A stretch of DNA of 62,636 bases, counting the filler, from Hausera hauseri (Eukaryota): the NCBI GenBank assembly GCA_046269625.1. It is 12 parts of 12 records of this genome, joined end to end, with 100 filler letters (N's around TTAATTAATTAA, not from the genome) between each part and the next. Parts side by side here need not be neighbours in the genome. Positions count along the whole stretch, not along the records: positions 38,594 to 43,424 come from JBJURY010421142.1; 11 more parts are not named here. One strand, given 5' to 3'. Each line of letters begins with the position of its first letter. Position 1 is the stretch's first letter. Below are positions 1,101-62,636 of this stretch, one piece after another. Made by a program: the position numbers and the translations under genes. The notes beneath the pieces are model-generated. The model was not told where the DNA came from, searched no databases, and saw only the letters and a list, made by a program, of their open reading frames with translations.

Positions 1101-1190
1101 GATTTGTTTTCGTTTTCCGGAGCATCACGAGTAGACAGGCAGTTGGTTCTTGTTCGATGGATAAACCGTCACGCGTATAAGATTAAACGA

Positions 1191-3691: not shown

Positions 3692-3775
3692 TGATGTAGG
3701 GGGTATGTATCTATTAAGTAAGGTCTTGATAGTAATATCTAGAGAATCACTAGATGCGGCTTTAAATTTGGATAG

Positions 3776-15540: not shown

Positions 15541-15759
15541 GGCTTGAAGGTGCAGAATTGGATGGGGAAAAGGGGATGAACTGTCAGAAAAAGTTAAAGT
15601 AGAAGGATTGAGAGAAAAAGTAGGGGAAAGTGGATTAAAGGATTGAACAGAAATTTGCGAATTTTTGGACTGCTGCGCGTCGTGTAAAGATGTTGGTGGT
15701 GAAATGATCTCGATGGGAGACATATCGTTAATGAAAAGAGCTGACTTAATGTTGTTGAT

Positions 15760-22479: not shown

Positions 22480-24290
22480 ATCACAAGCCCTTAACAATTT
22501 ATCGAACGGTGTTATAATTGCAGTCAAGATTTTGCATGAAAATCCGGTAAACGTAAATATCTCGTATCAATTTATAACTGCTTGAATTACGGCTTTGATT
22601 AATTGTACTAAGAAATAGATCGCTAAAAATCCAGATGCTGTTTGTACGGAAATTATAAATCTCCAATTTTTGTGTATTTCGGTGGTTACTCGTTGATAAT
22701 TATTTGCACCAAGTAATGATTCCCATTTTGCTTGATAGCGAATATCGTCTACAATTGCAGACATGGCTCGATTTAGGTCGTGTGTTCGTTGACATGGAAA
22801 AGCGATAATCTGTCTAAAAGCTTCAACGTCCTTTGGTCTATAATTGCCCTTTGTTGGGGTATCCTGAAATTTATCATCCGTTATTCCTTTTACGATATTG
22901 GTTCCTGTTAGTTTGTTAGTGGCAACATTCAGGCCCCCATTCAGTAGACTTACCCAATCCGTTTCACCACATCTAAACATGGGTTCTCCTAAGCTCGATT
23001 TACATTCTTTTAAGATTGTTGGCTAAGTTGCTTTAGCTAACAAGGCCCTAGTAAGTGACATAGCTAATCAGGATGTATTCTGGTACAAAACTGGAAGTTC
23101 TTGTATACACCGTTTTTCTTCGACATTAATAGTTCATCTCTCTTTCCACATTCATAAGTTAACAGGACTTTGCTCGTGACTCGACCGAAAATTCCTTCTT
23201 TCATTTGAATTATTGGTGACACTAATTCAGTATTGGTACAGATTAAAGCCAGTTTCGTTCTCATGATTTCCATATCTAATTTAAATCGTACGTTATCATT
23301 TTGCGGTATAGTTCCGTTATTCCGACTTGCCCTTGTAGTAGAAATAATCGTTTCTGTTCTCCACGTTATCTTCGAATCGTACATCTTGTGTTTCTTACTT
23401 ATGTCCGTGCATTTATTTCGGTTTCCGCTACAAAAAATGCCTCGTAATTTGTCTCGTGCATTACTACTTCGCAAAGTGAGAGAATTTCTTGATCAATTTT
23501 AATCCATAAGGGTCAGAAATTAGTATAGTTGGTGTAGCGTTCCTCCACGTCTTCTCGTGTCCTTATGCTACTATCTATCTTGTTCACATATCGGTTGCCA
23601 GTCATATCATTGAACTCCAGTTCCTTAACTTTGATGAAATTACAATCTTTTCCAGACGGTGGTTCCCAGGTTATGGCTGAACTCTTAAAAGCCCAAGTAC
23701 CCTACTGTAAATGACATTTTTGGTTTTCGAGATATAGTTTGGTGACGCTATGACACATCACTTTCCTTGTTTGCATTTCAGTTTCATAGAAATATACAAC
23801 TACCACACCTCCTTCTTTCCTTCTTCCAGTGTCGTATTATACGCCACCACAATATCCGGTATGGATGTATTATTTTCCCGCTGCTAATTTAAATGATCTA
23901 ATTATTTTCCCTTGCTGCAGTTCGAGTTCCATATCGTCTTATTTTAATCTACCGGTTTCTGTAGCTTGACTACAGTGTTGTCTTTCCAAGCTCATTGGGA
24001 TCGGTGGGGTTGGATTATTGATGGATGTCCATACATCTGTCAACAATGCAAAACACTACAAGATCTACGTAACATACATTCTATTCCATCTAGCGAAATC
24101 ATTTCACGTTATTGATATAGTACGTAGCTTTTCTCTTTTGATTCCAATTTATGTGGGCTGTCATCTCCAGACGTTTCCAAATCTATCAACGAATATTTTA
24201 GCCAAGTTTAAGTTTGTCACAGTCGTATACCATGATAACTCCCATTTATTTTATCAACATCATCGGGGTTAGAAAGTTAATTAACCAACT
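22480..24290 (-). pseudogene. Chuvirus-like (class III-type) envelope glycoprotein, decayed
   Basis: Signal-like WLINFLTPMMLI then MVYDC; GIECMLRRSCSVLHC; GYCGGV; AITWEPPSGKDCNF; EGIFGRVTSKVLLTYEC; CLQELPVLYQN...TRAL...EPMFRCGETDW; DVEAFRQIIAFPCQR; TM GFLAIYFLVQLIKAVIQAVIN. Confidence 0.7.
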
Positions 24291-24854
24291 TTGTTCGTTT
24301 CCTCGGTTATGACCCGTCTAATTTCGTACCACATTCTCGAGTCTGCTAGAGGATGACTTATTTTGGTATTCTTCCATTTCAAATAGTTTAGTCCAGTTTA
24401 TTTCTCGAAGTAATTTTCTGGCGGCTTTCCCTGCTACGTTATTAGCTCTGTTAAATTAATTTTCTCGCGTTGGATTTGTTTTAATGTCCAAATACAGTAA
24501 TACCTTTGTTAATTATTCTGTTATTTTCTACCGTGATCTTCTCAGTCACTGTTCGATCCGTTAAAGTGTTTTTAAATAATCTGAAACGAGAATTTCTCAT
24601 TGTTCTGACTGCGTTATATATAGCTTTTTCTCTTTCATCTGGTACATCGTCACGGAGACTAGATTATTTCATGATACGCATTAAATTCTTCATGAGTTCG
24701 GTTAATTCTTCGTTATCCGTGTTGAAAGTAGGTACAACATTTGCTTTAGTTCTCNNNNNNNNNNNNNNNNNNNNNNNNNNNNNNNNNNNNNNNNNNNNTT
24801 AATTAATTAANNNNNNNNNNNNNNNNNNNNNNNNNNNNNNNNNNNNNNNNNNNN

Positions 24855-25624
24855 CATTTGGCTGCCAGTGTAGGTGATACAAGTGCGAGGTCGATGACAC
24901 TGTCAGAATCACCCGGTCTGCTCGCCAATCTCGTCGCCCTGCCATCATTGGTGCACACCAGGTCAGCTGTTACAAGGGCGTCTTCTAAGTCCTCGCCTTG
25001 CTTGTTAAGGGTGACATTTCCCCACTGCCTGCCTCTGGCATTGAAGTCCCCACAGAAGATTATGTTCTTTTCATCCCGTGCGAACAGACTTTGCCACATG
25101 CTGGTATCAACCTTACCATTGCATGCGTACACGTTAACAACCAGTAAGGACACTGGGTCTTCCACTCTGACAGCGTGGGTCTGCAAAGCTTCATTGTTCC
25201 AGCTGGACATGTCCACCTCCGAGGCCCTCAAACTATCACGTACGAAGATGGCCTGTCCACGATGTTGTCTGTTAAAATATGCCTGGAAGCCCGCCACTCT
25301 TACTGTCTTATCATTGAGGTTGGTTTCTTGTAGACAGACGATGTCGGAGCCGTATACAAGTTTGTCAAGAATAGGTCTCCGTTGACTCACACTAGCGATG
25401 TTCCAATACATTATGCGAATATTTTTACGGCCTATCCTTTCACATTTCGTTTTTCTCCTGCTGCAGCCCGCTCGCTTCCCTCTCTGTCTCCCCTTACCTC
25501 GAGTTCCTCTGAATTTCTTGTTAGTTGTTTTGGTTGACATAGTTTCGTTCCCACGCTGACGGGATCCTAGCAACGCGGATCGCTGCGAGTCAGCACAAGC
25601 ACTGTAGCGACTGCGCGGATCCAT
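24855..25624 (-). CDS. Apurinic-like endonuclease (APE) N-terminus of a non-LTR retrotransposon, truncated by contig end
   Basis: IMYWNI, DIVCLQET, VNVYA, IFCGDFNARGRQWG, SVIDLALVSP. Confidence 0.92.
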
Positions 25625-25758
25625 TCCACGCTAACGACTGATACACCTCAGCCACACAGCCCCTCGGCACGTGGAAAAACCTTGGGCTTGGTAGATAACC
25701 GTTTCAAATCGTTTGCTGGATGGAAAAACCGACCTCTATCTGCGTAAACAGAAAAGAA

Positions 25759-38373: not shown

Positions 38374-38913
38374 TACAACAATTAGAACGAAACGTAAATG
38401 AATGATTCGGTAAACTGGGCAAAAAGATGAAAACTATGCACCCATATGGCCGAATAATCATATACTTACCGTCATTGTTTATACTATGATGCTNNNNNNN
38501 NNNNNNNNNNNNNNNNNNNNNNNNNNNNNNNNNNNNNTTAATTAATTAANNNNNNNNNNNNNNNNNNNNNNNNNNNNNNNNNNNNNNNNNNNNGGATCGT
38601 TGACTAGCAGTCAGTAGTCGGCTTATTTTTATGTTTCCGCTGGTCATTGCCTCTACCATTAACTTAAATCGGCCTTCCACGGTCGGTGGTAGATGACCTT
38701 TTTTTCTTTGACCTTGATTTCCATTTGTCCCATCACAGTTGGGTGGGTCTCTATCTCTCTCATTCCGGCTATGTGCGTTACTGGTATGTTTAATTTTTAT
38801 CATTCTTTCTACTTGATACCCCACTAAGACGTATCCGTAGAGACACTATGCTACTTCCTCTTAAACTAATTTGGAATCCTTTTTGTGGATTAATTGTTTT
38901 CTTTTAATCCCGG

Positions 38914-39189
38914 TCACTCCGCATATGTTTCTTGTACTTTGCTTCTTGGGTTAATGATTTTCGGATAGAATTCGGCCCCGTTTTCTTCTCGTATGGATAT
39001 TTCAATTGGGATATAATTTCCTTCTTCTCCTGCTCCATAATTTACTGCGGCAATCCTGAGATTCCTGTCATAGGTTACCAATCTAAATGAGTGTATATGT
39101 GCGTCCTGTTCTTCAGTGAGTCTTTGTTTAAACTCTAAGGGCGTCAATAAAGCGGCTATTGCTTCCTCTTCGGTTATTTCAACCATCAT
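38914..39189 (-). CDS. Unknown accessory ORF fragment
   Basis: 91-aa ORF, co-oriented with the element. Confidence 0.35.
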   Translation of the reverse strand: MMVEITEEEAIAALLTPLEFKQRLTEEQDAHIHSFRLVTYDRNLRIAAVNYGAGEEGNYIPIEISIREENGAEFYPKIINPRSKVQETYAE

Positions 39190-39282
39190 TTTTACAGGTA
39201 AGGTAGCTACTCGAAATTTTTGCTCGTAATTGTGGAAATTTCTACTGTTAAATACAAATGTGCTAAACCGGCTTTGTCTTCC

Positions 39283-39624
39283 TTAAAATGAATCCCATTT
39301 TTGGTCTTTCAGCCGATAATAGATTTCCCCGTCTTCTAAGTGTACATATATTTTCTGTTCCTTATCCATTCGGTGTTGGGTGATCTGTTTCAAAGGGTAT
39401 GCTCTGGCATACTTGTCCTCTCTCCAGGCATATAAATATATAGCTCTGGCCTTTTCAGTTGTTCCTTTTAAATTGTTTGGTATACCGTCAACTTTTTTGT
39501 ACTGGATGAAGTTTTGTCCTTGTAATTCTGTGTTGATTTGCCTACAAATGGCTTTGGAATTTGGGATCCGGACGGTTACGTACTGTTGCAGAACTTCGTC
39601 GATGCTAAGTCGACTCGTGTTCAT
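39283..39624 (-). CDS. Unknown accessory ORF of Gypsy element (probably continues via frameshifts into 38914-39189)
   Basis: 113-aa ORF preceded by a splice acceptor; no motif recognised. Confidence 0.45.
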   Translation of the reverse strand: MNTSRLSIDEVLQQYVTVRIPNSKAICRQINTELQGQNFIQYKKVDGIPNNLKGTTEKARAIYLYAWREDKYARAYPLKQITQHRMDKEQKIYVHLEDGEIYYRLKDQKWDSF

Positions 39625-39743
39625 TTCGATTCGCTTACTTACCAGTCTGAAAAGAAAACATAAATGTTAATCTTAAAATAAAGTATGGCCTTAAACCAAA
39701 ACAAATTCTTTGTTTGATAACAGAATAACCTGACCTGTAATTG

Positions 39744-41150
39744 TCAGATTATTTTATCATATGGGTCTACAGGGTTTTCCAATTCCCTTAGTTCCCATTC
39801 TGAGTTTTTATGACGCTTAGAATAACAGTTTTTGGTGACTAATCGAAAAATCGCAATTAGTATAATGCGAACAAATGTTGGCAGTACCGTGATAGATACG
39901 ATTGGTAGTGTAGTTAGTCCCATCGGTACTTGTGTGGTGACCAGAGTTGTGATCCGCTCATCTATATCCTCATATGTATGAGATTCTGTGCGAATTTCAT
40001 CTAAAGTTTGCAATGTAATGGTCTGATTTTGCTTATTCTCCGCACATATCTGTACTATATATTCGGCTTGTGGTTTTAATAAATTGCATTCTGTTCGATA
40101 TTTTTAAATAATTTCACTACTTGATTATTATACGTTGCCCGACAACTTATATATATATATTGTAATTTTGTTTCTCTTCCACGAAGAACACAATCTTAGA
40201 TCGATATGCCGAATATTTAATGGGGATACTTCCTAATTCTCTTTTAGGCACATTGGCCGATGTAATGATTGACGTAATGGTACTAATTTGAGTAGTTGGC
40301 CTCCTGGTGGTCGTCGTTACTAAAATTTCCCAATTTCTATTTTCTGGATAGTAAGTTCTCAATTGTACACTTGGTTTATTCGGCTGTACTTCATATAAGT
40401 CAAATCTTATTCTAAACTCTCGGTTTAGGGGTATTTTACAGCATGGTTTTTGCATGCCTGCTCGAATAGAACAATATTCTATCTTCGGGGTCGGTCCAAC
40501 TGTTGCTTCAAACGTGATACTAATTTCCTTACTGAATGTTAATCCTGTTCTAGCGTCTGCTTGAATGCACTGTTTGTCCTTAATCACAGTGATTCTCTGA
40601 ATATTTTCGTCTAGTATTCTTATCTCTGGGTCAGTGGATCGTAAGATTTCATTCAGTTTTACTCCTTGATGTCTGTTCCATGCAGGAATGACTAATTGCA
40701 AATGTGGTTTCACTTCAACATAAACTTCAGTTGAGTCTGGCAAGTATAGACGATAGGTGAGGTTATAAGTACGTCCAAAGTCTATATCGCAACACTGCGC
40801 ATTTTCTCCAGGTTCAAAATCGCAATTTTTCGTTCCTCTTGTGGTTGTGTCAAGTAAGACAATTTGAAATCTTCCGAAATCGTGATGCGGTTTCCAAGCT
40901 TTAAATCCAACACATACGGAGTTTGGCGAATAGTAATGAATTGTCATTGATTGCAGTAATTTAGTGTCCTCTTGTTTTTGAACTTCTGCTGTTGGCTTCT
41001 TTTCCGTCTTGGTAGTTTCCGATTTCGATCCACTCTTCCGAATTCCGTATGTCTCCTAACAATGATTCATCGTACCACCATTAGGCTTGTGTTCTCGGGA
41101 GGTAGGAGGCAATCAACGATAATACTAAGACTATCTGAACGTATGATATT
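39744..41150 (-). pseudogene. Putative type I membrane protein: signal-like peptide, 2-3 FN3-like domains, Thr-rich linker, TM helix, short tail
   Basis: SYVQIVLVLSLIASYLPRTQA; internal repeat NCDFEPGENAQCCDIDFGRTYNLTYRLY / YCSIRAGMQKPCCKIPLNREFRIRFDLY; ECNLLKPQAEYIVQICAEN (FN3 signature); LPIVSITVLPTFVRIILIAIF. Confidence 0.6.
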
Positions 41151-41236
41151 GGTCTAGTAACTATCGATGAAGTTTTTACTTCACGTTGACGTAGATTATA
41201 ACGTTTGCTGGGTCGTATTTCTGTCGTGATAAATCT

Positions 41237-43424
41237 CTATATTGACACAACTTCTTTTCCATTTTTGTTAATATATACTGTAGTTGGCGTAGCCTTTGTA
41301 ACCTCGTACGGTCCTCTACCTATACGAGTCAATTTTAGTGAGGTGCCTTTTTTGGCTACTGGGTAATGCACATAAACCCAATTTCCTCGTTCTATATCAT
41401 GCGGTTTCGCTTCCTTATCATATTGCTTTTTAAATTGTTCTTGATATTCTTGTGATAGTTCTTTGGCAATTTCCCAACACTTTTGTAATCGCGTTTGTAT
41501 CACTTCTCCGAAATTCTGTTCTAAATCTTCGGAATTAACTGTGCCAGGTGTCATTACTAAATCCGTGGGCAACACGGCTTCACGTCCGTACATCATAAAA
41601 AATGGCGTAAACCCTGTCACTGGATGTGGCGTGGTATTAATTGCAAATTGCGTTCCTTCCAAAAATTCGTCCCAATCTTTTTGGTCCTTAGACATACTGT
41701 AGACAGTATACGTATGACGGTAGCATTCATCCGTTCGACCATTCCGTTACATTGAGGATGATATGCAGTAGTTGTTAATCTCTCGATTTCGAATATCTTA
41801 GTGATTTTCTCGAATAATTCACTAATAAAATTTCTTCCTCTATGCGTTAGTATTTGGTCTGGGGGTCCGTATCGACAAATAATTCTTACAACGGCTTCTG
41901 CCAAGGTTTCGGCTTTCTGATCTATCAATGCTATCAATTCGACGAAATGAGTTAATCGATCAATACACGTTAAGATGTACTTATTGTTTTTGTGGGTCGT
42001 AGGGAGGGGTCCTACAATATCCATCGACATAGCTTGCATGGACCTATCGGGCACATTGATTGGTTTTAATTCAGCCACGTAGTTTTTCGTCTTTTTCTGT
42101 TTAGTTGCACACACTTCACAAGCATTTACCCAATTTTTCACATCGATATGAATGCTAGGCCAGAAGTATTTATTCATTATTCTTTCTAACGTCTTCCAGG
42201 ACATGTGTCCGGCTAAGTATGAATCATGTTCTGACATCAGTACTTCGGTTCGTAAACTCCGGAATAACTATCAGCTTCTTTCCCTTTCGTTCGTAATATA
42301 AAATGTCTCCTTCATTTCCGCCGTTTAAGACGCAGTATTTGTGTCCGTATCTGTGTAAATGTTTCTTTAATTGTCGCCCGTTTGGTATAATGTCTTTTTT
42401 AGCAAATTCTATAATCAGCTGGATAACTTTATCCTTCCTGTTCTGTTGAAATCTTGATTGCTCTATCTATTGTTAACACGCGTTGGCGGTCTATTATTTC
42501 TTCAAGTTGACTTTTCTTCATTACTGTGATTGCGCTTATTTTAGTCTTAAGTCTCGATAGTGCATCGGCGTCTACGTGTTTGTTCCCTGGCTTATACTGA
42601 AACTCAATGTTATATCTGGAGATTTCTTCGATCCATCTATTTAGTCTGCAGGTCGGGTTATTGGCTCGACCCTTTAAGGTCGTAACGGCCTTGTGGTCGG
42701 TGACAATTATAATTTTCTGCCCGTAAACATAAAGACTAAAATGTCGAAGTGCTTCTTTTACTGCTAGAGTTTATAATTCGGTAACAATAATTTTTCTCAG
42801 CCTTCTTCAAAGAACGTCCTCCATAAGCAATTGGATGCTCGAATTCTTGATCCTCTCTTTTCTGTGCTAATTCATATCCAATACCTTCCTTACTGGCATC
42901 TGTCTTAATTATGAATGGTAAACTTAAATCTGGGTATTACAAAACAGGTTCACTCGTTAATATCTTCTTCATTTCAAAGGCTTTCTGCTCGACGTCTGTC
43001 CATTTCCATTTAATCCCTTTTTTAAGCAGACAACATAGAGGCGCATTAATCTTTGAGTTATCTGGTACGTAGGTTGCGTAATATCCCCAGAGTCCTAGCC
43101 AGTGTCTCAACTCTTTCTGATTTTGTGGTTCCATGCAATCTGATATTTTGTTTAATAGTGATTTATCCGGTTTTGATCCTCCGTCTCCAACTATGTGACC
43201 CAAGTAGGATACTGCATTTTAAGCCCATTTGCATTTCTTCGGGTTTAACTTCAATCCGGCTTGTTCCAATCTCATCAGTGTGTGTTCAATATCCTTTAAG
43301 TGTTCTTCTTCTGTTCTCGATATTATCATCACATCGTCTAAATATTCAAAAGCATGATCCAATCCCATTAACATTTTGTTCATCATTCTCGTAAATATGG
43401 CTGGTCCGGTAGTAATACCGAACG
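41237..43424 (-). pseudogene. Gypsy pol (RT C-terminal half, RNase H, integrase)
   Basis: YLDD, LGHIVG, TDASKEGIG, HVDADALSR, HDSYLAGH...CEVC, MDIVGPLP, HPQCNGMVERMN, GPYEV. Confidence 0.93.
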
Positions 43425-45539
43425 NNNNNNNNNNNNNNNNNNNNNNNNNNNNNNNNNNNNNNNNNNNNTTAATTAATTAANNNNNNNNNNNNNNNNNNNN
43501 NNNNNNNNNNNNNNNNNNNNNNNNTTAAATTTTATTGCTCATTAGCATGTGTTACAGAATGAACTATGGAAAAGCCAAATATACAGTGTAATTAATAAAA
43601 TCTAGGAAAGCCATATCTTTAATAGGTTATTTAGGAAAATAGATAATCAGTAATTATACCTTCAATATGGAAATTAGACTGCGATGACTCTAATTGAACG
43701 TCCATAAAAATCATCGGAAAAATTGATATACTTGTCAAAAAACAACAGAAAACCTGAGATCAGAACAAAATCGGAAAGCAAATAAAATAAAATAAAGAAC
43801 ATCACAATGCCTACTTATAATCAGACTATAAGTCGAACCAAAGTTAACAGACAGATAAAATCGACAATTGTTATTACCTCGAAAAATTGTTATCGTGATC
43901 TTTCGTTATTTCTTTAACTGAATTAAGAGAAATTGTTATTAAGTAGGCAGAGTGAATTATTGTGTAGATATCAAAATTTCGCAGAAAAGTTACTGGAGAA
44001 AACTTGGCTCAGGATTGTTCTTTGAACGATATTCCTGTATTCAATTAACAATTGCCGATATGCTATATTGATCCGTATAAAACGACTCTATACGTCATAC
44101 GCAGACTGTATTGTATTTAAATATATTGTGCATAATAAATTTCTTTTAGTTTCCCACCGCCCCTTAAAGCAGGTTCGACTTCATTAGGCATAAAATTTTA
44201 TTTAACAATAAGTAGAAAATGGGAAGTCTGCACCACCACCCTCGGGGTGTGTGGGAATCGATGAAATCAATATAGCACATGTGCCAATCGATAGTGCACA
44301 TGGAGCACTATCGATCGGTAGGGTGCTAGGCGAAGGGGATGTTAGGTACCGTTTCTAAGCACATTTTTGCACATTTCACAAATCGATAGCTGCATATTGC
44401 ACAGTTCGTCGAATCGATCGGGACAAAGGATTAATTGATAGTGCACATCAAGCCGAATCTTCATATACACTGTGCAGGTGCGCAGCACATGTACAAGTGT
44501 GCAAAAATCAATAATATCGGTTTCGATATACGATGCATTATGTGAATGTGCAATTAGAATTTAAATCGATCGAGTCGATTTCGAATAATATCGATCCAAA
44601 TTGCAACTGGTACAGGCTTTCCAGTTTTAGGTCCCAAGGAGTCAAAATTCGACAAATGTTTAAAAGGGAACAGATAGGAAGTGCCACATTGTAACCCGGG
44701 TCCTCCATCTCAAATTTCCGAAATTCGATGGACAATTCGAATAAATATCGATTTTCACCAAATAGTATCGAATATCTTGACACCCATAAATTTTTTGAGA
44801 AATTTGAGAGCGCCAGTCGATTCCCCATGCACCTTTCAGATCTACCGCACATGTGCAAATGTGATTTAATCAATAATAAAGGTTTTCCGATAAAACCTAT
44901 AAAGTTGATTTTAGCACACAAGCTAGTGGAAGTCGAAAAATGTAAAAGCGTACACACAGAAACTAACATGTGCTGTATCCGATTATGACATCAAATATTC
45001 GAAAACTCGAATACAAGTCGAACTTTTCGAATAATTGATTTTCTATTCGAATAGAAGCAAAAATCGAAAAATCTGAAGGCGGAGAAGGATAGAAACCCAG
45101 ATATGTAGAATTCGAATATGACATCAGATATTCGAAAAGAGGCTGAAATAAAAAAGCCGATTTTTCGATTGAATTCGAATATTCAAATAGTACCATCGGA
45201 TTCCTCATGTTCGAAAACCTTTGTAGACCAAACATAGGGTGTACAAAATATTTAAAAGTGTCTCTAAATGAATAAAACATTGAAAATTTCGATACTATTC
45301 GGTCAAGCATGCATTATTGGAACAATCTGATAACTCCAATCAATTGTATTAATACCTATTTAGCGCCAAAGTGCATTTAATTTATTTTATGCATTAAAAC
45401 AAAGTGTTATAGAATGTTCAAAAATTCAAAATTTAAAAATCCATAAATGAGGCAGTATGCGTTGATTTGGCTATGTTTCATTATTTACAAAATCACTTAC
45501 AAGAATAGTGAGATTTTTATTTGTGCTCCTCAAATAATT

Positions 45540-48500
45540 GGTTGATTTTTAGATGTGAAATCTATACAAACAGTGCTTGGCGCAAATCAACGAGCTCAAA
45601 AATTGCCACAACATTATGCAGAAATACTTCAGCCATCTATACAACAGGGCTGAGTATTATATATGCCCTACATGTGAGGTAGTGTGCAAGACCAAATATG
45701 AAGACTTTTACATGCCCATAAACAACACCTGATTCCCTTCTCTAAGTCGAAAAAACAAGTATTCAACACAACTATGACAATAATGACTTCAATGTCTAAG
45801 CAAAATCAAAGATGCAGTTCATACTTGTATTGCACATGCGCAATACACAACCCTAAGAACCGTCATAATACTATGAGGAGCTATTATGGATATAAATTCA
45901 ATAGGATCCTCTATTATATATCCCCAAAATGTGAGACTGTATCATTTGAGTCACTTCGGATCAAAGTCAAGGAAAGCCATTTTTAATGAGCAACATAAAC
46001 TTGATGAACCTGCTTCGCAACATGATGATTCGCAGTATTCTGCCGAGCCTAGATGAAGTCGCGAAATTTGAAAGCGTCAACAACATCTCCATCAACATCT
46101 TTGGATTGGAGGAGGAAAAATTTTATCCCCTACATGTGTTCAAGGAGGAATTGGATGATAATATGGATCTGCTCCTGCTAGATTATGGAGAAACGAGGCA
46201 TTTCATCCGGATCAAGAATTTTGAGCGCATTGTAGGATCCCAAATATCCAGTCATAAGTCAAGGCTGGAAATCTGCAAATGATGTCTATCCCATTTCAGT
46301 GGTGACATGGCCTCGGCGAAGCTCAAGGAGCATAAGACCTATTGCAATACGAACTATTGCATCCGAGCAGAATTACCCAAGGAGGATTACCTGGAATTCA
46401 AAGAGTTTGAAAACGTTGAAGATGCCGATTGTCATATATTGTGACTTTAAAACTATCCTCAGCTCAGTTCACAGCTGCACTCCGAATCTGCAGAAAAGCA
46501 GATCGACAGCTTACCAATATCATTAGCTGTCATCATACTGCATGTATGCATTAGTCATGACAAGGAGCCACCCCTATACCGGGGTTTAGATATAGCGCTT
46601 CATTTCAAGAAGCGCTTGGAGGAAATTGCATATAAAATCGAAAATATGCATCATAAATGTAAGAATACTAAGAAAATGTGTCAGGAGGAGAAATGTGAAT
46701 GTCAAAATGCAACACAGTGTTACCTGTGTGAAAAAGCCTTCACATTACACAATCACAAAGTCCGAGATCATTGCCATACAACCGGCGTGTATCGAGGCGC
46801 AGCGTGCAATAATTGCAATCTACGTTGCAAAACATGTACATATGTGCCTGTAGTGTTCCATAATCTCAGTGGCTATGATTCCCATTTCATTGTTCAGGAA
46901 CTGAACAGCATTGAAGGAAACATTGATGTGAGTCCTAATAGTGAGGAAAAATACATCACCTTTACCAAGCATGTTGGGAAAATCAGGCTTCGCTTCGTAG
47001 ACAGTTTCCGTTTCATATCGTCTTCACTTGACAGTTTAGTGAAGAACCTCCTTGCAGAAGAACTTATGGAGACGAAGCGACTCTTCACTACTACATTTGA
47101 CCTTGTTAAAAGGAAAGGTGTGTTTCCCTATGACTATATAACATCACGGGAAACATTGGATGAGACCCCACTGCCGGCCAAGAAGGACTTTTACAATATC
47201 CGCTCAGACAGCGATATCAGTGATATGCGCAGAACGTTTGGCATGCATTTCAATGCCAAACAGAGACATATACTCAAGATGGACGTGCTGCTGCTGATGG
47301 ATGTCTTTGGGAGCTTCAGGGATGGTACGATGAAGAACCATGCATTGGATCCAGCTCATATTTTTAAGGGTACAGGAAAGAGTTTGGCAGCTAGGCTGCG
47401 CTATACATGTGTCCGGCTGCAGATCATAAAGGATTACGACATGATCCTCATGACTGAGAAAGGCATTAGAAGGGAATATGTCAGGACATTCACCGGTATA
47501 GCGAGGCCAACAACAAGTATATGTCCCAGTATAATCCATACAGGAAATCCTCGTATATATCATACCTGGATGCCAACAACATATATGGTTGTACAGTGAG
47601 CGCCCCATTGCCATATGATAACTTCAAATGGGTCGAGCATCCTGAAAATATCCCTATACTGGACCTGGATCCCACTGGAGATACGGAATACATACTCGAG
47701 GTGAATATGGAATATCCGGTTTCCATCCATGCAGGAAATCAACAACTGCCTTTCGTTTCTGGGTGCAAGCCTCCGCCTCATGGAAAGCATAGAAAGCTGC
47801 TCTTCCATCTGGAAAGTAGGGAAAGGTATATAGTCCACTACAGAAATTTCCAGCAAGGTGTCAGGAATGGATTCCGCATTACGGAGATCCATCTGGACCT
47901 CCAGTTTATCCAGTCCAACTGGCTGCAGCCGTACATAGATCTTAATATGAAACTGAGGACAAATGCCAAGAACGACTTTGAGAAGTTTTAGTTCAAGATG
48001 TACAACAACAGAGTTTTTGACAAGACCATGGAAAATATCCACAAAAGGATCAACATCGAACTGGTCTGTGAGTGGAAGCGGGCAAAAAAGCTCAATGCCA
48101 AGCCTAACTTTTACAGCAGCACCATATATGCGGAGAACATGGTCAGCATCCATATGCTGAAAACATCGCTTGAGTTAAACAAGCCCATATATGTGGGTAT
48201 GGCAATACTGGGCCTGTCAAATACCCTGGTGTACAAATTCCACTATGACATCATGGTCTCACATTCAAGTCCATACAGCTGACGTACATGGACACTAATA
48301 GTTTCATCTATCAAATCCATACTGAGGACATTTATGAGGACTTTGCTAAGTTAGCACAGCATATGGATACATCGGACTATCCGAAGAAGCATACCAACGA
48401 GAAAGTCCTTGTGAAATTCAAAGACGAGGTGAATTTGGCAATCATCTCGAGATTTGTGGCTCTTAGGTCCAAAATTACGATTGATGTATGTAGTCAAGTA

Positions 48501-48743
48501 AAGAAGAGAGCTAAAGGGGTTCAAAAAGCGACCTTAGCCAAGAAGAATGGCTTCAATGACTATATGCAAGTTCTGCATAAGGCGACTCATATCATATCAG
48601 AGATGCGAAGGATCAAGTCTAGGGCTCACAACATTGAGACAGTAACATTACAGAAGAAAATCTTAGATCGGATGGATAACAAAAGACAAATCCTGGATGA
48701 TGGAATAAGCACATTACCTCACGGGCATGTTGCATTAATGTAA
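45540..48743 (+). pseudogene. Polinton/Maverick-type protein-primed DNA polymerase B with N-terminal endonuclease VII-like Zn motif, decayed
   Basis: KFESVNNISINIFG; VIYCDF; VRDHCHTTGVYRGAACNNCNL; FHNLSGYDSHF; RFVDSFRF; RKGVFPYDY; YLDANNIYG; NKPIYVGMAILGLS; YMDTNS; KRAKGV. Confidence 0.93.
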
Positions 48744-49700
48744 ATATCTTTGCTACGAGATGCTGTATTTTTTGTATTAATAAATCTTATAAAAATATCG
48801 TGATGCCTTCTTGATAAAGTAATGTGGTATATAGGATAAGGCAAAGCAAATAAATAAATAAATTAGAAATTCAAATAAAAAATCAATGCAGAGAAAAATG
48901 ACAAAAACATGCCCAGTTTGTTTGAGTAGATGGTAGAAAAGACAATGCATATGGCTACTTGCAACACATACATTTTTTGTGGGACGTCTTCAGAAATGGT
49001 TACGTCGTAAAATTTCATGCCAAATATGAAGGATATTGCGATTTTGTCCTTAGTAGATGGAAGTGAGCACACTGGATCAGCCCCGCCCCCGCGGAGAAAA
49101 AATTGATGTGGTTCGCGGATGAGTCATGGGGTGGAGATGGGATATTTTCGACACACACTCACAAAGTGGATACACACAAGTAAGTGTACTGCATGGCTTT
49201 TAGACACGTGTAAAAATTTGAATTTCGCGCCAAACATTTTTTGTTTAAATTTTGGTGGTCGGGTATAAATATATATGTGTGCAAATAGCATGGCATTGTT
49301 TCAACAAATAGTACGACAAATGGTATGTTTTTAATTCTGCTTTCCGAAATTACTTTTATACTTAGAATTACAAAATAGATTTATAAGCTGATATTAAACG
49401 GCAAACAAATGAAATATGCAATGGGGAAATTTATTGTGTCCAGTTTTTAAATAAACTGGAGCAACAACACTTTCTACCAAACGAAGACTATGTAGAACTT
49501 GTTGTTGGATCGATATTAATGACAAACATTAAAGAGGAATATAGAAAAAGACAGAAAAATGTTTTACTTGTATATAGTATTCTTACTGGTGCATTTGTAA
49601 NNNNNNNNNNNNNNNNNNNNNNNNNNNNNNNNNNNNNNNNNNNNTTAATTAATTAANNNNNNNNNNNNNNNNNNNNNNNNNNNNNNNNNNNNNNNNNNNN

Positions 49701-53875: not shown

Positions 53876-56056
53876 NNNNNNNNNNNNNNNNNNNNNNNNN
53901 NNNNNNNNNNNNNNNNNNNTTAATTAATTAANNNNNNNNNNNNNNNNNNNNNNNNNNNNNNNNNNNNNNNNNNNNATGTTAATATGAAACGCGTATCATG
54001 TGATCAATCACGCGTGAACATGACGTGTAGGCGCTCCACCCATGTGGCTCGCTTTTAAGCTAGAACCACGCTTTTTTTTTCTTCTGACCGACACTTTCTT
54101 TCAACCTCCCACTTGTCCAAAGCGTCCAACGTCCCCACCACATCAATCGAACGCCCGGACTCTACTCTACATTTTCACTTATCCATTACTGCTCAAATTT
54201 TGCTTCTGGAAAAAGTTCGTTTTTTTCTTTTGCATTTCCCGGCTTTGTCTTTTGCGACACCAAAAAACCCACGGCACCATTAAACTCGCCGTTGTCGAAC
54301 TGACCAATCAGCATGCGAGCGTTACGTGACTGGTCAATTGGTGCGTGAATGGACCCACTCCTTTGGTCCAGAACCATCCTTTTTCCCCTACTTATAATGT
54401 AGGCCATCCATTGTTCGCTATTTTTGGTGAAGATTATAAAATTGGCTAAATTTTGAAATACTTCTAAATGACAAAAATACATATAAATGCGTTCAAACAA
54501 ACTGGCATATTAATTGACAAATTAGTTCGAAAATAGAACATTTGTTTAAATTTGTTTTCATTTTTAAATTAAAGGCGTATTTTAAAATTCATTTAAACAT
54601 TTTTATTTATGAAAGTATGAAAATATAACAAATCTATATAGAACAGTTTCAATGTAGGTTAAAGTGTTTATTTCTTCATATTTTCACTCCTGTTTTAATT
54701 ACGTATTTAAATACGACATAACTTAAATAGTGGAATAAATAATTTTAAATAAATTTAAAAATATGCTCTTAATTTAAAAATAAAATAACAAATTTAAACA
54801 AATATCCATTCTCCGAACTTATTTATCAGACCATGTATGTTTTGGGCATCATTATGACATTTGTGACAATTTCTTGTAAACTTTAATTGAAAACTTTTTA
54901 CATAGTGATTTTTATTCAAAAATAAACTATTTTAATCAGCAATCCAAAATATATAACAAATTTTTGTACGAATATCTAATGTCTTTGTCCTGCTTGAAAT
55001 TTATGAAATTCAGGATTCCACAATTCAATTTATAGGCGGAAATTAGTAAAATTTATTGGACAAAATTAAAAATGAAAGTGATTGAATTGCTCACCAAAAT
55101 ATTATTTACACTTAAATCACCAAATCGTCTTAAAGTAGACTCAAATATAAGGAAGTGCAAAATAGTATTTAAGAAAAATGTGTGCAAAAATATTTATAAC
55201 AACTTGATGCACCCGTGTATCAAAACATGCTGCTACTTAACTAAAGTAAAGTCTAGAGAAATTAATTTCGAGAAATATCGTTACTGTTATGTACAAATTT
55301 TACTGTACAATATCTTTACAACAATAGTAAGGTCTTGATAACATCATCTAATTTTTGTCAGACTACCATCAAACAATATAAAGGAACATTGCATAGTTGT
55401 AATGCAGTGACCCGTTCTTCTCCTGAAAACTGCAAAAGACTTTTCGTCCATTTTGAAGTCATTGTTCAATTTATACTATGTCCGATCCCCATTCTGTGTA
55501 AAGACATTTTAGAGAGAATGTTAGTACTTGTATTCCAAAAAGCATAAAATTTACGTTGGAATCATTTTAAAACTTACTATAATATTTTGGATGTAATTTG
55601 CTGGCAATAAACTGCTCTGTAGCTTCTACTGGAACTAAAAATGACCATTCAACATTTAGTCTCTACCGTGTTGCTAACCCTGATGTATTCATTAAATTAC
55701 TTTGTCGATTTTATATATTCAGTCTTTAAGTATTAATATTTAGCCATTTTTAAGAATAAATATCTTAAGACGGCACAACACAAATTGTTTGAACTAAATT
55801 TTTGATTTTCTTATATCAAGAGGANNNNNNNNNNGCTAATATTTTTAGTTTTGAAGAATAGTGAGACAACTAGAAAACGAAATTGAACTTAGATAAAATT
55901 GAAAAACTCCAAGTATGTACATTTCTTGTTTGGGGTTATTAGCATATATGACGAGTAGTCATTCAAATTCATAATCTCTTGCTTTGTTTTAAACAATTAA
56001 TAGTTAATTTAATTTCTAAATTTTTTCAAATACGAATTTTATTTGATTTGAATGTC

Positions 56057-56592
56057 ATGGCCAAAAGAAAATCGGAAAGTGATGGTAGTAAACCAAGAAT
56101 TTTTTATTTGTTAAAATTTCATATAGAAATCATTCTGTCAGCAAAATTGAGCAGAATTGATGAAGTTTTATCAAGGGGAAATAATGCCCTCATGATGCTG
56201 AATGAGGTTGGTATCAAAGGACTAAAATGGAACATGGAACAGATCAAAAATTCTGTCCCACAAAAATTCCGAGCTACATGTCAATTTACCGAACCATTTG
56301 CTGGACGTGACAATGTTATCCAAACTGGAACGATGTTTTTTTCCGATGGATTAACTAAAGCGGCTTGTAAGCATGAAATTGCCGAACAGATTATCGGTCG
56401 AATTGCTGGGAAATCGTCAAATGGTGTTGTGAATAACATTCCAGTGGAAAAATCGGCTTTATCATCGGATGCTCCCAAATTAGAGGAATCTGTTAGAATT
56501 TCAAACGAGAAGGCAAAAGATTCGGAATATAAATTTATTCTACAAGAAGATGGATATTCGTGTTATGTGGATTTTCGTAGAGTCGTTGTCAA
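56057..56592 (+). CDS. ADAR: ADAR-like gene, 5' exons with dsRNA-binding domain (probable 57-nt intron 56085-56141)
   Basis: MAKRKSESD; NALMMLNE...FRATCQF...F.SDGLTKAACKHEIAEQII dsRBD pattern; exon 3' end approximate. Confidence 0.65.
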
Positions 56593-57315
56593 GGTTGGTT
56601 TTCAGTTGTTATTTCTCCTTTAAACAACTTTGCCATTGTTGATTGTTGTATAAAATTTACAAATATTCCTTATGTTGATTGCTTAAGATGACTTAAATTG
56701 ATTGTGGGAGCTTTTCGTGTTTCATGGCAAGACGGATACTTATTTCCCTATTTTAATATTTCTTTTAATCCAATAAGCTTAAGCAAGGCAGCCAATAGTC
56801 TGGAACATGTTTGGAGGATTCTCGAAATACGCTCATCCGTGGACGGAGGAAATGCACGAAGTTCGCCAGTGGTTCTCTCATCGATCGATGATCTCCAATG
56901 AATCCTAGTCATGGGATATCAGACAGTACTAAGTATTCCAGACGTGTTTATATAATGAGTTAATACTTACTGCACGGGCACGATTTATGCATACCTTGCT
57001 AAAAATTCCTATAAAAATGCGTTATCTAAATTGACTATTGTAAAATTTATGAAATCACGAATCTGTGAAACGTCAGATAATTCGTTAAATTGTTTTTAGA
57101 TGACGGGACCGAGTAAAAAAATAGCTAAGAGACTTGTTGCGCAACAAATTTTGAAGAACTATTTTAAATTGGTATTTGCTGAAGAAAGTAAAAGTTGTGT
57201 TGTACGAGAATTGTTTAGCCCAACATTTAGAGTTACCATCAATCGTTAGTCCAAGTAAATTAACAAATACAGAATCAGAGAGTGAGTTATTTACCATTTA
57301 CTGTTTATTAGAGTA

Positions 57316-57860
57316 ATGATAGAATTGCCGCCGGGTCGACAGAAAGCTTTTTCTAATCAGATTCAGGCACTGGTACGGAATGGATACGAAAAGCTAATTA
57401 GCAACGTTGATATGCAATATGCCAAAAGAAAAGTTGTTGCGGGCATTGTTTTGAGCCGTAGCATAAAGGCCGTCTTTCCTCAATATTGTAAGAGAGATGA
57501 TAACAAATTGGAATGTGCAATCGATCCTTCGACGTTTTTTGAAAAGACCGGCGGCTGGTCTGTAAACGAAGACGATCCGTGCGAAATGCTGAAGGTAATT
57601 GTCATCAGTTCTGGAACAAAATGCGTCTCGGGAAGTGTGCTAAACGCTGATGGACTGTCCGTGAACGATTGCCACGCTGAAGTAATAGCAAAACGATCCA
57701 TTCAGCTGTTCATTTACAAAGCTATCGCGCGTTATCAAAATGGGTTTAAATATGTACCCGGTCATGAATTATATGGTTGTGATATTGTCGAAGCTATAAA
57801 TGGTGAAAATCCTTGGATTTACAAATCTAATAAGGATGTGAAACTTCATATTTATGATAC
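57316..57860 (+). CDS. ADAR: ADAR-type adenosine deaminase domain exon (gene truncated by contig end)
   Basis: RKVVAGIVL...KVIVISSGTKC...VNDCHAEVIAKRS...KLHIY. Confidence 0.88.
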
Positions 57861-58149
57861 GTTTATGAGTTTCGAAAAGAAGTTTGGGTTTTCGCAACCC
57901 TAAACTTATATTCATTACTTAATTCAAAATAAGCCTAGTTTCTCCTTCCTCTAAGGCTACAGGTTTATTANNNNNNNNNNNNNNNNNNNNNNNNNNNNNN
58001 NNNNNNNNNNNNNNTTAATTAATTAANNNNNNNNNNNNNNNNNNNNNNNNNNNNNNNNNNNNNNNNNNNNTATACCTATACGCCTTCTTAGGCGTGTACA
58101 ATGGACTTTACTTACTTACTTTTTATTATTAATATTACTACAAAATAAA

Positions 58150-58170
58150 TGGGGGCCTCTCGTCCGGGAT
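58150..58170 (+). promoter_or_regulatory. tRNA-Pro-like primer-binding site
   Basis: TGGGGGCCTCTCGTCCGGGAT vs canonical TGGGGGCTCGTCCGGGAT; follows ...TACA. Confidence 0.7.
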
Positions 58171-58979
58171 GGCAAAAGAGATGACCGGAGAGATAGGAAT
58201 GGTCAAATAAAATAAACACCCGAACCTTCGTCTGGGATAACAAAATAGATCATCAGGGAGTAATAAAAGTAAACATAAACACCCGAACTCATCCGGGATA
58301 ACAAAATAGATCATCAGAGAGTAGTAAAAGTAAATTAATTAAACCGAACATTCGTCTGGGATGCCAAAATAAATCACCGGAATAGGCGCACATTCGTCCA
58401 GAGTTGACGAACATTGAAATCGTAGGATAGGAACGAGAGGGATCAATGACACAGAAGAGCTTACGCAACCGCTAGGATAGACAAGACGCCCTTGGTCAGT
58501 GGATTGATGAATCCAGAGAGGGAGATAAGTTAATTTAGGGGGAATTAACAGATAATTTAGTTAGAAAAATTTATTTTAGTTAGATGCATGTTTGCCTAAC
58601 AGCCTATTTTGCAGAATAGCAAAGCAAAGGCAAAGGCACAGAAAGTTCAAGCAAGTAAGCAAGCGCCTCTAATAATTTTAAAATATAAAAGGTTGAGTTA
58701 TAAAAGAATGGAGGCAAAGGTAAGTCGTCGGATACAATCGACGTACAAGACGCTGTGAAATTAAGAAGGTCTAAAGAGTGTTTGGGTAGCATTTAAAAAG
58801 GAAACTAATGGAAATACAAGATAAATAATCTTGGAAAGCGCAGACATTGGCGCGAATTTTAAAATTTAAGTAATAAAAATTAATCATTCATCTAAACTCA
58901 TACGCAGATACTTAGCGCATTTCAAGCAGACACTACAACTTCACTTATCATTGTCCATCGTCATATAAAACGAGAAAGG

Positions 58980-60140
58980 ATGGAACATAGTATAGAGAAA
59001 ATGTTAATGGACAGGTTACAGCCTGCTAAGGAACAAGGTACACCGAACGACGGACTCGCATTCCTAGTTGAACAATTTAATAAAGATTGTGCTATACAAC
59101 AATTGCGCGAGGCGACACCGGCGTTTAAGAGGGACAAGTCTACGCTACAGGCATGGTTAACCATGCTCGAATTCGTCGCCAGACAGAGGAATTTACCGGA
59201 GAAATTATATGTAGAGATGGCAGCGCTAACTTCCACTGACAACGTTCAAGCTACGATACAGCAGTGGATAATGTTCGAGAAGGATATCTCGTGGAAGGAA
59301 ATGAGAGAACGGTTGATCCGCACCTACGGAAAACCGGTAGACCAAGATATCACTATAAGAAAAATACATTCCGTGGTACAGGAATCACACGAAACGATAC
59401 TAGCCTATTACGAAAGAGTTAATAGAACACTCATACACGCATCTGTGTCAGCCGAAACCCAGAGAGGATTAGCCGCGTCGTTTGTGGATGGATTGTTAGA
59501 CGAACGTATGAGAAGAAAGCTAACAAAGAAACAACCGGCGACATTAATAGAGGCCATGGAAAGAGCGGTAGACATAGAAAATGAAACCATCAGGTTCCAG
59601 GCAAGATATGAGGTACGCCGACGGGCAAGAGCATCTCGAACAAGCAGAGGTGAATACCATAAGAGAGATGAGACAACCGCAAGAGTTAACCCCATACGAA
59701 ACTGAAGTCAAACCACCACTAGCCCATCCGAAAAGTCCTATAAGCCAAAGCGTGTCCCATTATAAACCCTCCCCTAAAGCTAAACGATACGACCTTACGG
59801 TGAAGATAATCGGGAGTAGCAAACCAGTCTGTAGATTCTGTCAGAATGAAGGTCATACAGCTATGAAGTGCCGAAAAGAACGAAATTTAGGAAGTATATA
59901 ACATGTAGCGTATGTCATCAGAGAGGTCACCTAGCCCAAGATTGCACCATTCCGAAAAGCAAACCAGGGAACAGAATGGCAGTCCACGCCATTGACGAGG
60001 TCCAAGAGAATTCAAGGGTGCAGCCAGCGCAAGATGAGTTAGAAGTGAAACAAACGTCCAGAACAGTAGAGCCGCAAGTATACACGATTACTGAGAAGTT
60101 AACGGAAACCGAACCTTGCTCAGCTTTGGTACAAATCTAG
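58980..60140 (+). pseudogene. Gypsy gag (capsid-like + two CCHC zinc knuckles), frameshifted
   Basis: SWKEMRERL...VQESHETILAY...FVDGL; CRFCQNEGHTAMKC; CSVCHQRGHLAQDC. Confidence 0.88.
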
Positions 60141-62636
60141 GATAACCTCATTCGAGCACTACTGGATACGGAGCGAACATCTCCGTGATGGATAGCAGGA
60201 CGATTGTAGAACTAGATATTACTCACCGGGTTAAACCGCACGAGTCATCGCTGGCAATGGCAGGAGGTGAGAGAATGTCGATCGTCAGGGAGATCAGACT
60301 TACTTTCTGGTTGGCAGGGAACAAGTTTAACCACACGTTCCAGGTGACACCCAAGTTGCAACAAAGGATGATACTTGGCAGCGACTTCCTACACTGGAAC
60401 AAGATAGAACTTAGCTTCCGGCGCAATGCGATTTGGGTTAAAGACCGGTGGCACGGGGTGGACAATGACATATATAACGCATCGCTGGTACAGGTGAAGG
60501 ATAACATGTGGATACCACCTCAGTCCATAAGTGTGGTGCAAGTGTATTTGAAGCCCTCAAACTACCTACGCCCGAGAGAGGACATATACCTCACCTATAT
60601 GGAAAACAATGAAGACTCTAACCCCAGTGAAATCAGTCAAGACCCTTGGATCCATATGCTAGATACCACTATAAAGCTGGAATCATCGAACGAAGTTTCG
60701 ATTACGATCGTAAACAACTCCAGCAAGCATGTATTTTTAAGAAAAGGACAAGCAATTGCCACTGCAGCAAAAATACACCACGTAGAATACAAGGCCATAT
60801 GAAGCATACAAGTAGAGCAGATACCGAGAGCCACCACAGCAAGACAAGATGAGAAAACCTCACAGGAAGAAGTGCAGGATAGACTTGAGACGTTGCTGAA
60901 ACAAAGGCAGAAACATGACACTCTAGATCGTGAAGTGGTGAAACTAGTCAAGGAGCATCCAGATACGTTTGCTGTAGACGATACTAAGTTGGAAACGACC
61001 GATACCGTGCATATGGGCATTGACACGGGTAACCAGGCACCAATTGCCATGAAACCATACCCAGTTCCCATACACAAACGGAAGTTAGTAGAGAAGGCCA
61101 TTAGTGAGATGTTGGAGAATGGTATTACCTCACACACGATATCCCCGTGGGCGTTCCCAATCGTGCTGGTGCAGAAAAAGGACGGAAGCACGAGATTTTG
61201 CGCGGATTTTAGAAATTGCAGTTTCAAAGTCGATTTCCTGTCCTCTGCTACACATTAATACTATAATCGATAGTCTAGCTAACAGTACTTACTTCTCGAC
61301 ACTTGACGCGAGAGCGAGATTTTGGGTCATTCCCATGACGGAGAGAGCTAAAGAGCGTTCAACTATCACTACTCACATGGGCACGTTTAACTTTAATGTT
61401 ATGCCATTTGGCCTGAAAGGGGCACCGGCAACGTTTATGGCCTTGATGAACCGCGTACTACAAGGACTGTCGAACATCGCGATGGCATACATCGATGATA
61501 TTATAGTGCATACCAACGGCACATCGGAAGAGCACATTAGAGATCTAAAGATAGTGTTCGATAGGTTGAAACAGCATCATGTCAGGCTCAAGTTGAGTAA
61601 ATGCTCGTTTTTTCAAAAGGAAACGAAGTACTTGGGATTCATTGTTGGACAAAAGGGCATACGACCAGACCCAGAAAAAGTGGAAGCGATACAACAAATT
61701 CCAGAGCCTACCTCGGTACGGGAAATGAGAAGCTTTATTGGATCCTGTAATTACTACAGAAGATTCCTACCGGCATTTTCAGCTATAGCCGAGCCGTTAA
61801 TTAATCTCACTAGAAGAGGTACCCGATTTAGCTGGTGAGACGAATGCATTGCCGCCTTTGTAGAACTCAAGGAACAGTTCACCAAGATACCCATCCTAGG
61901 CTATCCAGATATTGCGAAACCTATCATTCTATATACCGACAGCTCGGATTTCACAGTAGGAGTGGTACTCGTCCAAAGCACCGAAGAAACAAACCCGAAG
62001 AAGAATGAGAGATATATAAAGTTTAAAGATAGATTGTTATACCACATCCACTACAACAATATGCTCCGATTAGTGGTACCTAAAACGCTACAGCCGCACA
62101 TAATCCATCAGTACCATGATTTGAAAGGGCACTGCAATATCTCAAGAACCCTGATGACGATATAGTCCAAATATCTAGCGAAAGACGTTTACAAGCATGT
62201 TTCCACGTGTACACAATGTCAGCTCAACCATACAGACCCGACAAAAACACCATTATTGGAAACTAAACCACCGAAGTTCTCGTTTCAGAAGATTTCGTTA
62301 GACTTAACCGGGCCACACCCCAGAACATTACTAGGGAACCAGTACATACTCCATGTAGTTGATGAATATTCGGCATGGCAGGAAGCGTATCCGTTACCGA
62401 ATAAACTTAGTGAATACCCTGGTCCAGAAATATTTCACAGAATTCAGCATTCAGCAAAGATCCTCATGGACAACGGAGGAGAATTCGTTAACAACAAGTT
62501 CGAGGAGATGTGCAAACGATACAACATTGTACTTAGGAAGACCAGCATCTACCACCCGCAAGCGAACGGGAGAAATGAAGCGTCACACAAAACTCTATAT
62601 GATATAATGAAGATGTATGTCAATGACACGAGACAA
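60141..62636 (+). pseudogene. Gypsy pol: protease, RT, truncated RNase H, integrase
   Basis: ALLDTGANIS, ILGSDFL, SPWAFPIVLVQKKDGSTRFCADFR, MPFGLKGAPATF, YIDDII, YTDSSD, HPQANG. Confidence 0.92.

Follow-up and report, generated by a model that had tools for sequence, protein, structure and literature searches.

What does a Ty3/gypsy element of Hausera hauseri encode directly behind its integrase? The question arises from a 4.8-kb contig (JBJURY010421142.1, assembly GCA_046269625.1) at positions 38594-43424 of the window, that is, of the whole 62,636-nt stretch of DNA analysed. The 62.6-kb window joins 12 unrelated contigs with N spacers between them, and the real context of the gene in question, open reading frame 3 (ORF3), is 38594-43424 only; its element is read on the minus strand of this contig. 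An earlier note, made from the sequence alone, had proposed that the integrase frame runs into a type I membrane protein with fibronectin type III (FN3)-like repeats, captured from a cell. The results below place at this position a conserved gene for a predicted FN3-type surface protein, which might act in attachment.

The passage from pol into ORF3 was found as proposed. The integrase frame continues past a stop at 41237-41239 through RYNLRQR (41183-41203) and, after a gap of 21 nt, enters in the same frame and on the same strand a hydrophobic, signal-peptide-like segment (41084-41161, minus strand), which was recognised by the frame of the integrase end, by hydropathy and by its identity with an intact homologue, P0001. 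These 21 nt leave no space for a long terminal repeat (LTR), in agreement with the earlier placement of the gene inside the element. ORF3 is interrupted by one stop and three frameshifts, that is, four breaks in 1.42 kb. The stop (41081-41083) lies directly behind the signal segment, and the first frameshift falls between approximately 41078 and 41056. A 302-codon frame (40150-41055) then holds two Cys repeats and a Thr-rich linker. After later frameshifts near 40148, in an AT dinucleotide run, and near 40098, the final frame provides an FN3-like segment, a transmembrane (TM) helix and a tail, and ends at the stop 39744-39746. The linker, TM helix and short cytoplasmic tail that had been claimed across these breaks were all located.

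Specifically, repeat 1 (40681-40947, minus strand) and repeat 2 (40321-40620, minus strand) each contain four Cys. The Cys pattern described earlier is present, but its spacing is C-x9-CC-x7-Y/F and not x6; this motif occurs three times across the six frames of the window, twice within the ORF3 frame. The two repeats are homologous, since none of 500 shuffles reached their score in any of four cross-comparisons (z 6.5-9.1), and by this sequence test they are a duplication. Repeat 3 (40002-40245, minus strand), which is frameshifted and has two Cys, gave pairwise z values of -1.2 to 2.7 against repeats 1 and 2 in all eight comparisons, and the best small-profile E value was 5e-4; by pairwise score it thus shows no detectable similarity to them. 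The Thr/Ser-rich linker (40246-40323, minus strand) is present in all three sequences available (ORF3 of the window, P0001 and a second homologue, P0002) and is probably an O-glycosylated spacer. The TM helix (39846-39911, minus strand) is evident from hydropathy in the same three sequences, with a Kyte-Doolittle value over 19 residues of up to 2.44, and from helix 432-461 in the P0001 model. The cytoplasmic tail (39744-39845, minus strand; approximately 27 residues) consists of a basic stop-transfer segment, an acidic patch and a terminal Y-x-x-I. YxxI is found in all three tails, NPxY in none.

An exhaustive phmmer search over 1.84 billion representative proteins returned two proteins for ORF3. 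P0001 (479 aa, E 1.2e-48) is an intact single frame with a signal peptide, three repeats, linker, TM helix and tail. It shares 168 of 458 aligned residues (37%) and 11 of 12 Cys with ORF3 of the window, and the reconstructed pieces are collinear with it over the full length. P0002 (189 aa) spans the linker to the tail. A word-indexed protein search with the 302-aa ORF3 frame confirmed none of 471 candidates, and the window holds no further ORF3 copy. Because there are at least three divergent versions of ORF3, one of them intact, selection on the protein is implied; judged by these homologues, ORF3 is a real gene. In a fragmented assembly with many frameshifts, a chance pattern or an assembly chimera might be suspected. 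Chance is refuted by the collinear full-length match to an intact protein at E 1.2e-48, the internal repeat is significant as well, and an artefact of either kind is extremely improbable.

The signal segment is unusually well conserved (20 of 26 residues identical with P0001, against 29 of 92 and 36 of 96 in the repeats; binomial P of approximately 2e-5 at a background of 35%), which may point to an additional function or to an RNA signal that it overlies. It has no Met at the position where the segment of P0001 begins, and P0001 was entered as a free-standing protein starting at Met. The missing Met and the shared frame with pol would suit either a polyprotein, as in Atlas virus and Burro, or a spliced mRNA. 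ORF3 may thus be made either as part of Pol or separately.

The fold of ORF3 was approached through structural models. AlphaFold, run on the single sequence of the window ORF3 frame, reached a mean predicted local distance difference test (pLDDT) score of 39, with blocks of up to 76 in repeat 1, and residues 37-125 (repeat 1) of this model matched FN3 chains with Z 6.0-6.9. The P0001 model, built on a 5-row alignment, shows three blocks of seven strands each besides a TM helix, at a mean pLDDT of 49 (approximately 64-78 in repeat 1, 50-59 in repeat 2 and below 50 in repeat 3). Its strand pattern covers repeat 2 and also fits repeat 3. In a Foldseek search of this model against PDB, the five best rows were fibronectin FN3 fragments (E 7e-6 to 5e-5). 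VIA gave Z 7.0-7.7 for a P0001 repeat, with a root-mean-square deviation of approximately 3 over 83-90 residues; a VIA Z below 8 can reflect a common fold, and the match lists are nonetheless dominated by FN3. Two ESM Atlas searches pointed in the main to fn3 clusters, with scores of 0.79 and 0.88; below 0.9, these are leads only. The Pfam fn3 family (PF00041) was not reached at its gathering cut-off of 25 by P0002 (13 bits, E 0.12), and P0001 and the window frames gave no match to it. The AlphaFold and Foldseek comparison that the earlier note had suggested thus yielded a predicted FN3-type seven-strand sandwich for repeats 1 and 2, with moderate confidence, whereas the assignment of repeat 3, with its low pLDDT and sub-threshold Pfam score, is weakly supported.

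The signal peptide, single TM helix and basic stop-transfer tail are those of a type I membrane protein, as hydropathy and the P0001 model predict. The earlier view that this protein does not resemble a fusogen also stands. The intact homologue runs in one frame from signal peptide through repeats and TM helix to tail, with fold matches dominated by FN3, and the furin site R-x-K/R-R is absent from ORF3. No fusogen family of Pfam matched ORF3, and its ectodomain is modelled as all-beta repeats, unlike a class I or class III fusogen. Among the fold matches listed there was no class II fusogen, and the model has no domain I/II-like region. Taken alone, this structural description of ORF3 is very probably correct.

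Its origin is less clear than the word 'captured' had implied. No cellular homologue appeared among the 1.84 billion representatives. A PDB sequence search with ORF3 gave nothing under E 1, the BFVD matches were unspecific FN3/Ig proteins of phages and viruses, 6-12% identical, and none of 84 pattern matches in prokaryotic genomes was confirmed. Because no donor was found in these three sources, capture from a cell is unproven; it is plausible.

The contig as a whole is best explained as a decayed Ty3/gypsy element of the envelope-bearing, gag-env-pol type, in which pol is followed by a two-gene accessory cassette of ORF3 and ORF4. The pol part comprises the 3' part of reverse transcriptase (RT; 43189-43424, minus strand; Pfam RVT_1 E 2.5e-16), RNase H in two frames (42612-43002, minus strand; RT_RNaseH_2 E 4e-20, RT_RNaseH E 2.5e-11) and integrase (41183-42261, minus strand), with an H2C2 motif (Integrase_H2C2 E 1e-15), an rve core (E 1.7e-12) and a C-terminal part with a basic RYNLR-type end. 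This order of Pfam domains matches Ty3/gypsy (Metaviridae). The integrase is frameshifted, and its C-terminal frame (41746 downward) has the stop at 41237-41239 as its only one. Because the contig starts within RT, it lacks gag, protease and whatever env may lie farther upstream. For a polypurine tract, the contig offers five purine runs, none of them diagnostic, and Rfam gave no matches.

The second gene of the cassette, ORF4 (38816-39624, minus strand), is homologous to P0004 (42% over 233 aa, E 1.2e-46), an intact 333-aa protein known without genomic context. ORF4 is broken by a stop at 39283-39285, a frameshift near 38918 and two more stops toward its end. It matches no Pfam or NCBIfam family and has no TM segment; its sequence suggests a conserved soluble protein outside the families of both databases. 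A PDB sequence match to Cdc15 (76 residues, E 0.007) was weak and is not trusted. Between ORF3 and ORF4 (39637-39663, minus strand) lie an acceptor-like site (12 of 14 pyrimidines plus CAG, at 39647) and, 4 nt on, GTAAGT; each is the sole example on the minus strand of the contig, and both may be splice signals. Two such sites 4 nt apart could delimit a micro-exon. In P0004, too, the translated sequence has a similar short peptide at the matching place, upstream of the part that matches ORF4.

Several features tie ORF3 to the element. It is intronless over 1.4 kb, and the frequency of A on its coding strand (0.37; ORF4, 0.40) is that of pol (0.36-0.39), with third-position values of 0.41-0.42 in ORF3 and ORF4 against 0.37-0.40 in pol. 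Elsewhere in the window, the comparison values for A are 0.27 in a LINE (long interspersed nuclear element), 0.24 in a Polinton and 0.25 in an ADAR-like frame. As far as the contig extends beyond pol, the A-rich bias persists unchanged (A 0.35-0.42 in all 16 bins of 300 nt). Decay is also alike: pol has eight breaks in 2.24 kb (four stops and four frameshifts, by-eye reading), comparable to the four in 1.42 kb of ORF3. Together with the lack of space for an LTR, these features argue that ORF3 belongs to the element. The alternative is that ORF3, with or without ORF4, is a host gene or retrocopy that adjoins the element or was picked up by this single copy, its homologues being host genes. FN3-TM proteins are common in hosts, none of P0001, P0002 and P0004 comes with genomic context, and the contig shows no LTR. 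Against this stand a gene in frame 21 nt from the end of pol and without introns, as is P0001, a composition continuous with pol across the whole contig, two conserved genes in tandem that have decayed like pol, and the fact that no named host family matches. We consider a host origin of this kind improbable.

A partner for ORF3 is suggested by a sibling element on a separate contig (19569-24754, minus strand), which ends before integrase. Its RT/RNase H (19650-20623, minus strand) is 74% identical in nucleotides to that of the target over 1001 columns. At the amino acid level, the identity is 43-75% (frame pieces), compared with 27-34% for the other Gypsy contigs; the sibling and target contigs supply complementary halves of elements that are related but not identical. 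Upstream of pol, the sibling carries a decayed gene for a fusion glycoprotein of the gB/chuvirus type (22474-24287, minus strand; Pfam PF24664 Monjiviricetes_fusion, E 7e-18, 64 bits). With gB placed before pol, the slot behind pol is left free. No gag was detected in the sibling contig; approximately 470 nt of coding-like sequence lie upstream, without a gag match. Stretches at 21535-21773 that resemble protease motifs were confirmed neither by Pfam nor by tblastn with the protease of the Gypsy element at 58 kb, and the env tail appears to extend toward them.

From these data we tentatively prefer, at somewhat under an even chance, that ORF3 is an attachment or targeting glycoprotein working beside a gB fusogen. 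The second accessory gene and the gB-bearing sibling, both unseen in the earlier note, tilt the balance toward attachment beside a fusogen over a replacement of env. From its anatomy, ORF3 would enter the secretory pathway. YxxPhi is a sorting signal, and the Y-x-x-I type also occurs in viral envelope tails. The YxxI of the tail could engage clathrin adaptors and so direct ORF3 to the membrane from which Gag capsids bud. For a protein without fusogen marks, attachment is the simplest role: displayed on particles or on membranes at which they bud, the FN3 domains, held out by the Thr-rich spacer, would bind a ligand on the surface of target cells, probably the germline or its support cells, and thereby set tropism. 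Membrane fusion would be left to a gB-type Env placed before pol, which is seen in the sibling only. Herpesvirus gB depends on partner proteins for receptor binding. Two precedents favour this scheme: Sas of Drosophila, also a type I protein with three FN3 domains, guides Gag-derived capsids to cells with its receptor (PMC10289811), and in Atlas virus an LTR element maintains attachment and fusion as functions of separate proteins (PMC9094657).

A number of observations weigh against this proposal. The link to gB runs through a related family and not through the target copy itself: gag, env and LTR are all missing from 38594-43424, where no long repeat was found and which stops approximately 220 nt past ORF4. 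P0001 and P0002 are single ENA entries whose location in a retroelement was not seen. Only two relatives were found among the 1.84 billion representatives, and an alignment-based search found one, P0001 itself, among 3959 candidates. The models are of low confidence (mean pLDDT 39 and 49, repeat 3 below 50), with all Z values below 8. A-richness is not exclusive to the element, as the non-LTR element on contig 1 and the Gypsy element at 58 kb are also A-rich. Finally, the Arc-binding motif Y(D/E)NP(S/T)Y of Sas and APP occurs in none of the three tails.

The ectodomain also admits a role on the expressing cell rather than on the particle, as a receptor decoy, an immune modulator or a block to superinfection. 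Many viruses carry captured receptor domains. Repeats 1 and 2 have extra Cys of a disulfide type and diverge fast (32-38% identity), and the Foldseek rows include tissue factor and cytokine receptors (IFNAR1 at rank 6, IL-4R, IL-11R and gp130). However, fibronectin-type chains outrank receptors in the fold lists, and WSxWS, the motif of class I cytokine receptors, is absent from P0001 and P0002. Moreover, the tail is too short for signalling, and its terminal YxxI fits trafficking. A function of this kind therefore appears unlikely.

Alternatively, the family might have no fusogen at all, and ORF3 would replace env and target capsid-loaded vesicles. ORF3 does occupy the customary position of env, and non-fusogen ORF3s are reported from rotifer elements (PMC5408684). 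A precedent is the Drosophila protein Sas (three FN3 domains, a TM helix and a short Tyr tail), which is described as directing vesicles loaded with Arc capsids of Gag origin to cells that carry the receptor (PMC10289811). 'Epidermal cell surface receptor' (Sas-like) clusters, at a score of 0.83 again only a lead, appeared at ranks 23-24 of the Atlas search. The sibling, which is the closest element within the window, nevertheless carries gB, and PxY, like the Arc-binding motif, is absent from all three tails. This alternative is about as improbable as a host gene.

Attachment beside a fusogen could be part of a larger picture, namely a Ty3/gypsy lineage turned complex endogenous virus of invertebrates, with gB before pol and a cell-type FN3 attachment protein plus a spliced accessory gene after it. 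Entry would then be divided between two proteins, one for attachment and one for fusion, whose genes were acquired separately from a cell and from a virus. We hold this extension to be rather doubtful.

The remaining contigs hold other mobile and host sequences, of kinds that suggest an invertebrate animal as their source. A non-LTR element (600-6600, minus strand) combines a Ulp1 protease (Pfam E 6e-8) with segments rich in Cys and His and with frames like those of RT and endonuclease; it resembles elements of the NeSL/Utopia type. Two more distant, decayed Gypsy elements lie at 14145-19468 (minus strand), where a low-complexity Ser/Pro-rich stretch follows the integrase, and at 58071-62636 (plus strand). 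LINE fragments were found at 24806-25630 (minus strand; APE endonuclease) and 29731-31730 (plus strand; RT); the latter begins at the contig edge with a perfect 60-nt tandem duplication, probably an assembly artefact. Polinton-like pieces with a protein-primed DNA polymerase B and endonuclease VII occupy 34020-38493 and 43525-49600, and the first of these contigs shows, by eye, integrase- and capsid-like stretches. A degenerate tandem array of approximately 80 units of 48 nt fills the whole contig at 49701-53875, where both strands contain long open frames; one further copy of the unit lies at 109-153. An ADAR/ADAT-like host gene (A_deamin E 3e-12) is located at 55952-57900 (plus strand), with an exon-like frame upstream.

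Among known systems, the closest are the GAG-ENV-POL errantiviruses of Chary and Hayashi (PMC13524379), a layout described from nematodes, bryozoans and flatworms. They have the Ty3/gypsy pol order in common with the target, and the sibling shares with them the gB-type env before pol. Those elements carry env, whereas no gB was seen in the target copy. The accessible part of that study annotates only gag, pol and env, and its main text contains neither 'fibronectin' nor 'FN3'. Supplement 1 was compared for its bryozoan and flatworm rows: in the six of ten bryozoan rows that give LTR coordinates, the 3' LTR lies 1.1-2.2 kb behind the stop of pol, and in the one such row of nine from flatworms 0.7 kb behind pol (our arithmetic). 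The bryozoan stretches are close in size to the cassette (ORF3, 1.4 kb; with ORF4, 2.4 kb), a comparison of lengths alone with stretches that are unannotated there. The ORF3-ORF4 cassette may fill this 1-2 kb before the 3' LTR in published elements.

Atlas virus (Belpaoviridae), with a separate attachment protein GN and fusion protein GC, resembles the target in having glycoproteins in frame behind pol, as far as the consulted text goes (PMC9094657). It differs in being a BEL/Pao element, in having acquired GN and GC jointly from a phlebovirus-like virus, and in its class II fusogen. The target would instead have a cell-type FN3 protein in a Ty3/gypsy element, apart from a class III fusogen. 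Planarian Burro (PMC6431247) is likewise a Gypsy element; its env is placed behind gag and ahead of pol, and it has captured cellular domains. However, it exceeds 30 kb, and its cargo is BIR, BCL2, ankyrin, MATH and SUMO-like, with no mention of fibronectin in the part of the paper at hand. Rotifer Vesta/Juno ORF3s (PMC5408684) and sORF2/FAST of the MDG1 group (PMC11952523) are non-env membrane or accessory genes of Ty3/gypsy elements, some of them behind pol. In the available text they encode esterases, exonucleases, short TM proteins or myristoylated fusogens, none with FN3 repeats. FAST/sORF2 proteins have 63-107 aa, a myristoylation motif and an ectodomain of approximately 30 residues, and an identity of ORF3 with them is ruled out by the 479 aa and signal peptide of P0001.

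Our literature search found no FN3 gene in Ty3/gypsy elements, and 'fibronectin' did not occur in the related papers checked for the term; Repbase, GyDB and Sacco et al. 2022 (nematode gag-env-pol) were outside its reach. Extra ORFs in Ty3/gypsy elements and gB-type envs are already known, and the new component is a conserved accessory FN3 surface protein, apparently undescribed. Conserved genes of such elements escape surveys that are confined to gag, pol and env. How envelope-bearing retrotransposons are transmitted is described as remaining elusive in the accessible text of PMC13524379, and an FN3 surface protein is a candidate tropism determinant for them outside Drosophila. A similar anatomy is known from the Drosophila Sas/dArc1 system: in the portion of PMC10289811 available, Sas is described, like ORF3, with a signal peptide, FN3 repeats (three), a single TM helix and a short tail that bears Tyr. 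Unlike ORF3, for which Pfam gave no VWC match, it is a host gene with VWFC domains and the tail motif YDNPSY, and no sequence similarity between the two was detected. ORF3 represents a new kind of accessory gene among Ty3/gypsy elements and would be a counterpart, arrived at independently, of the Sas-Arc system of the host.

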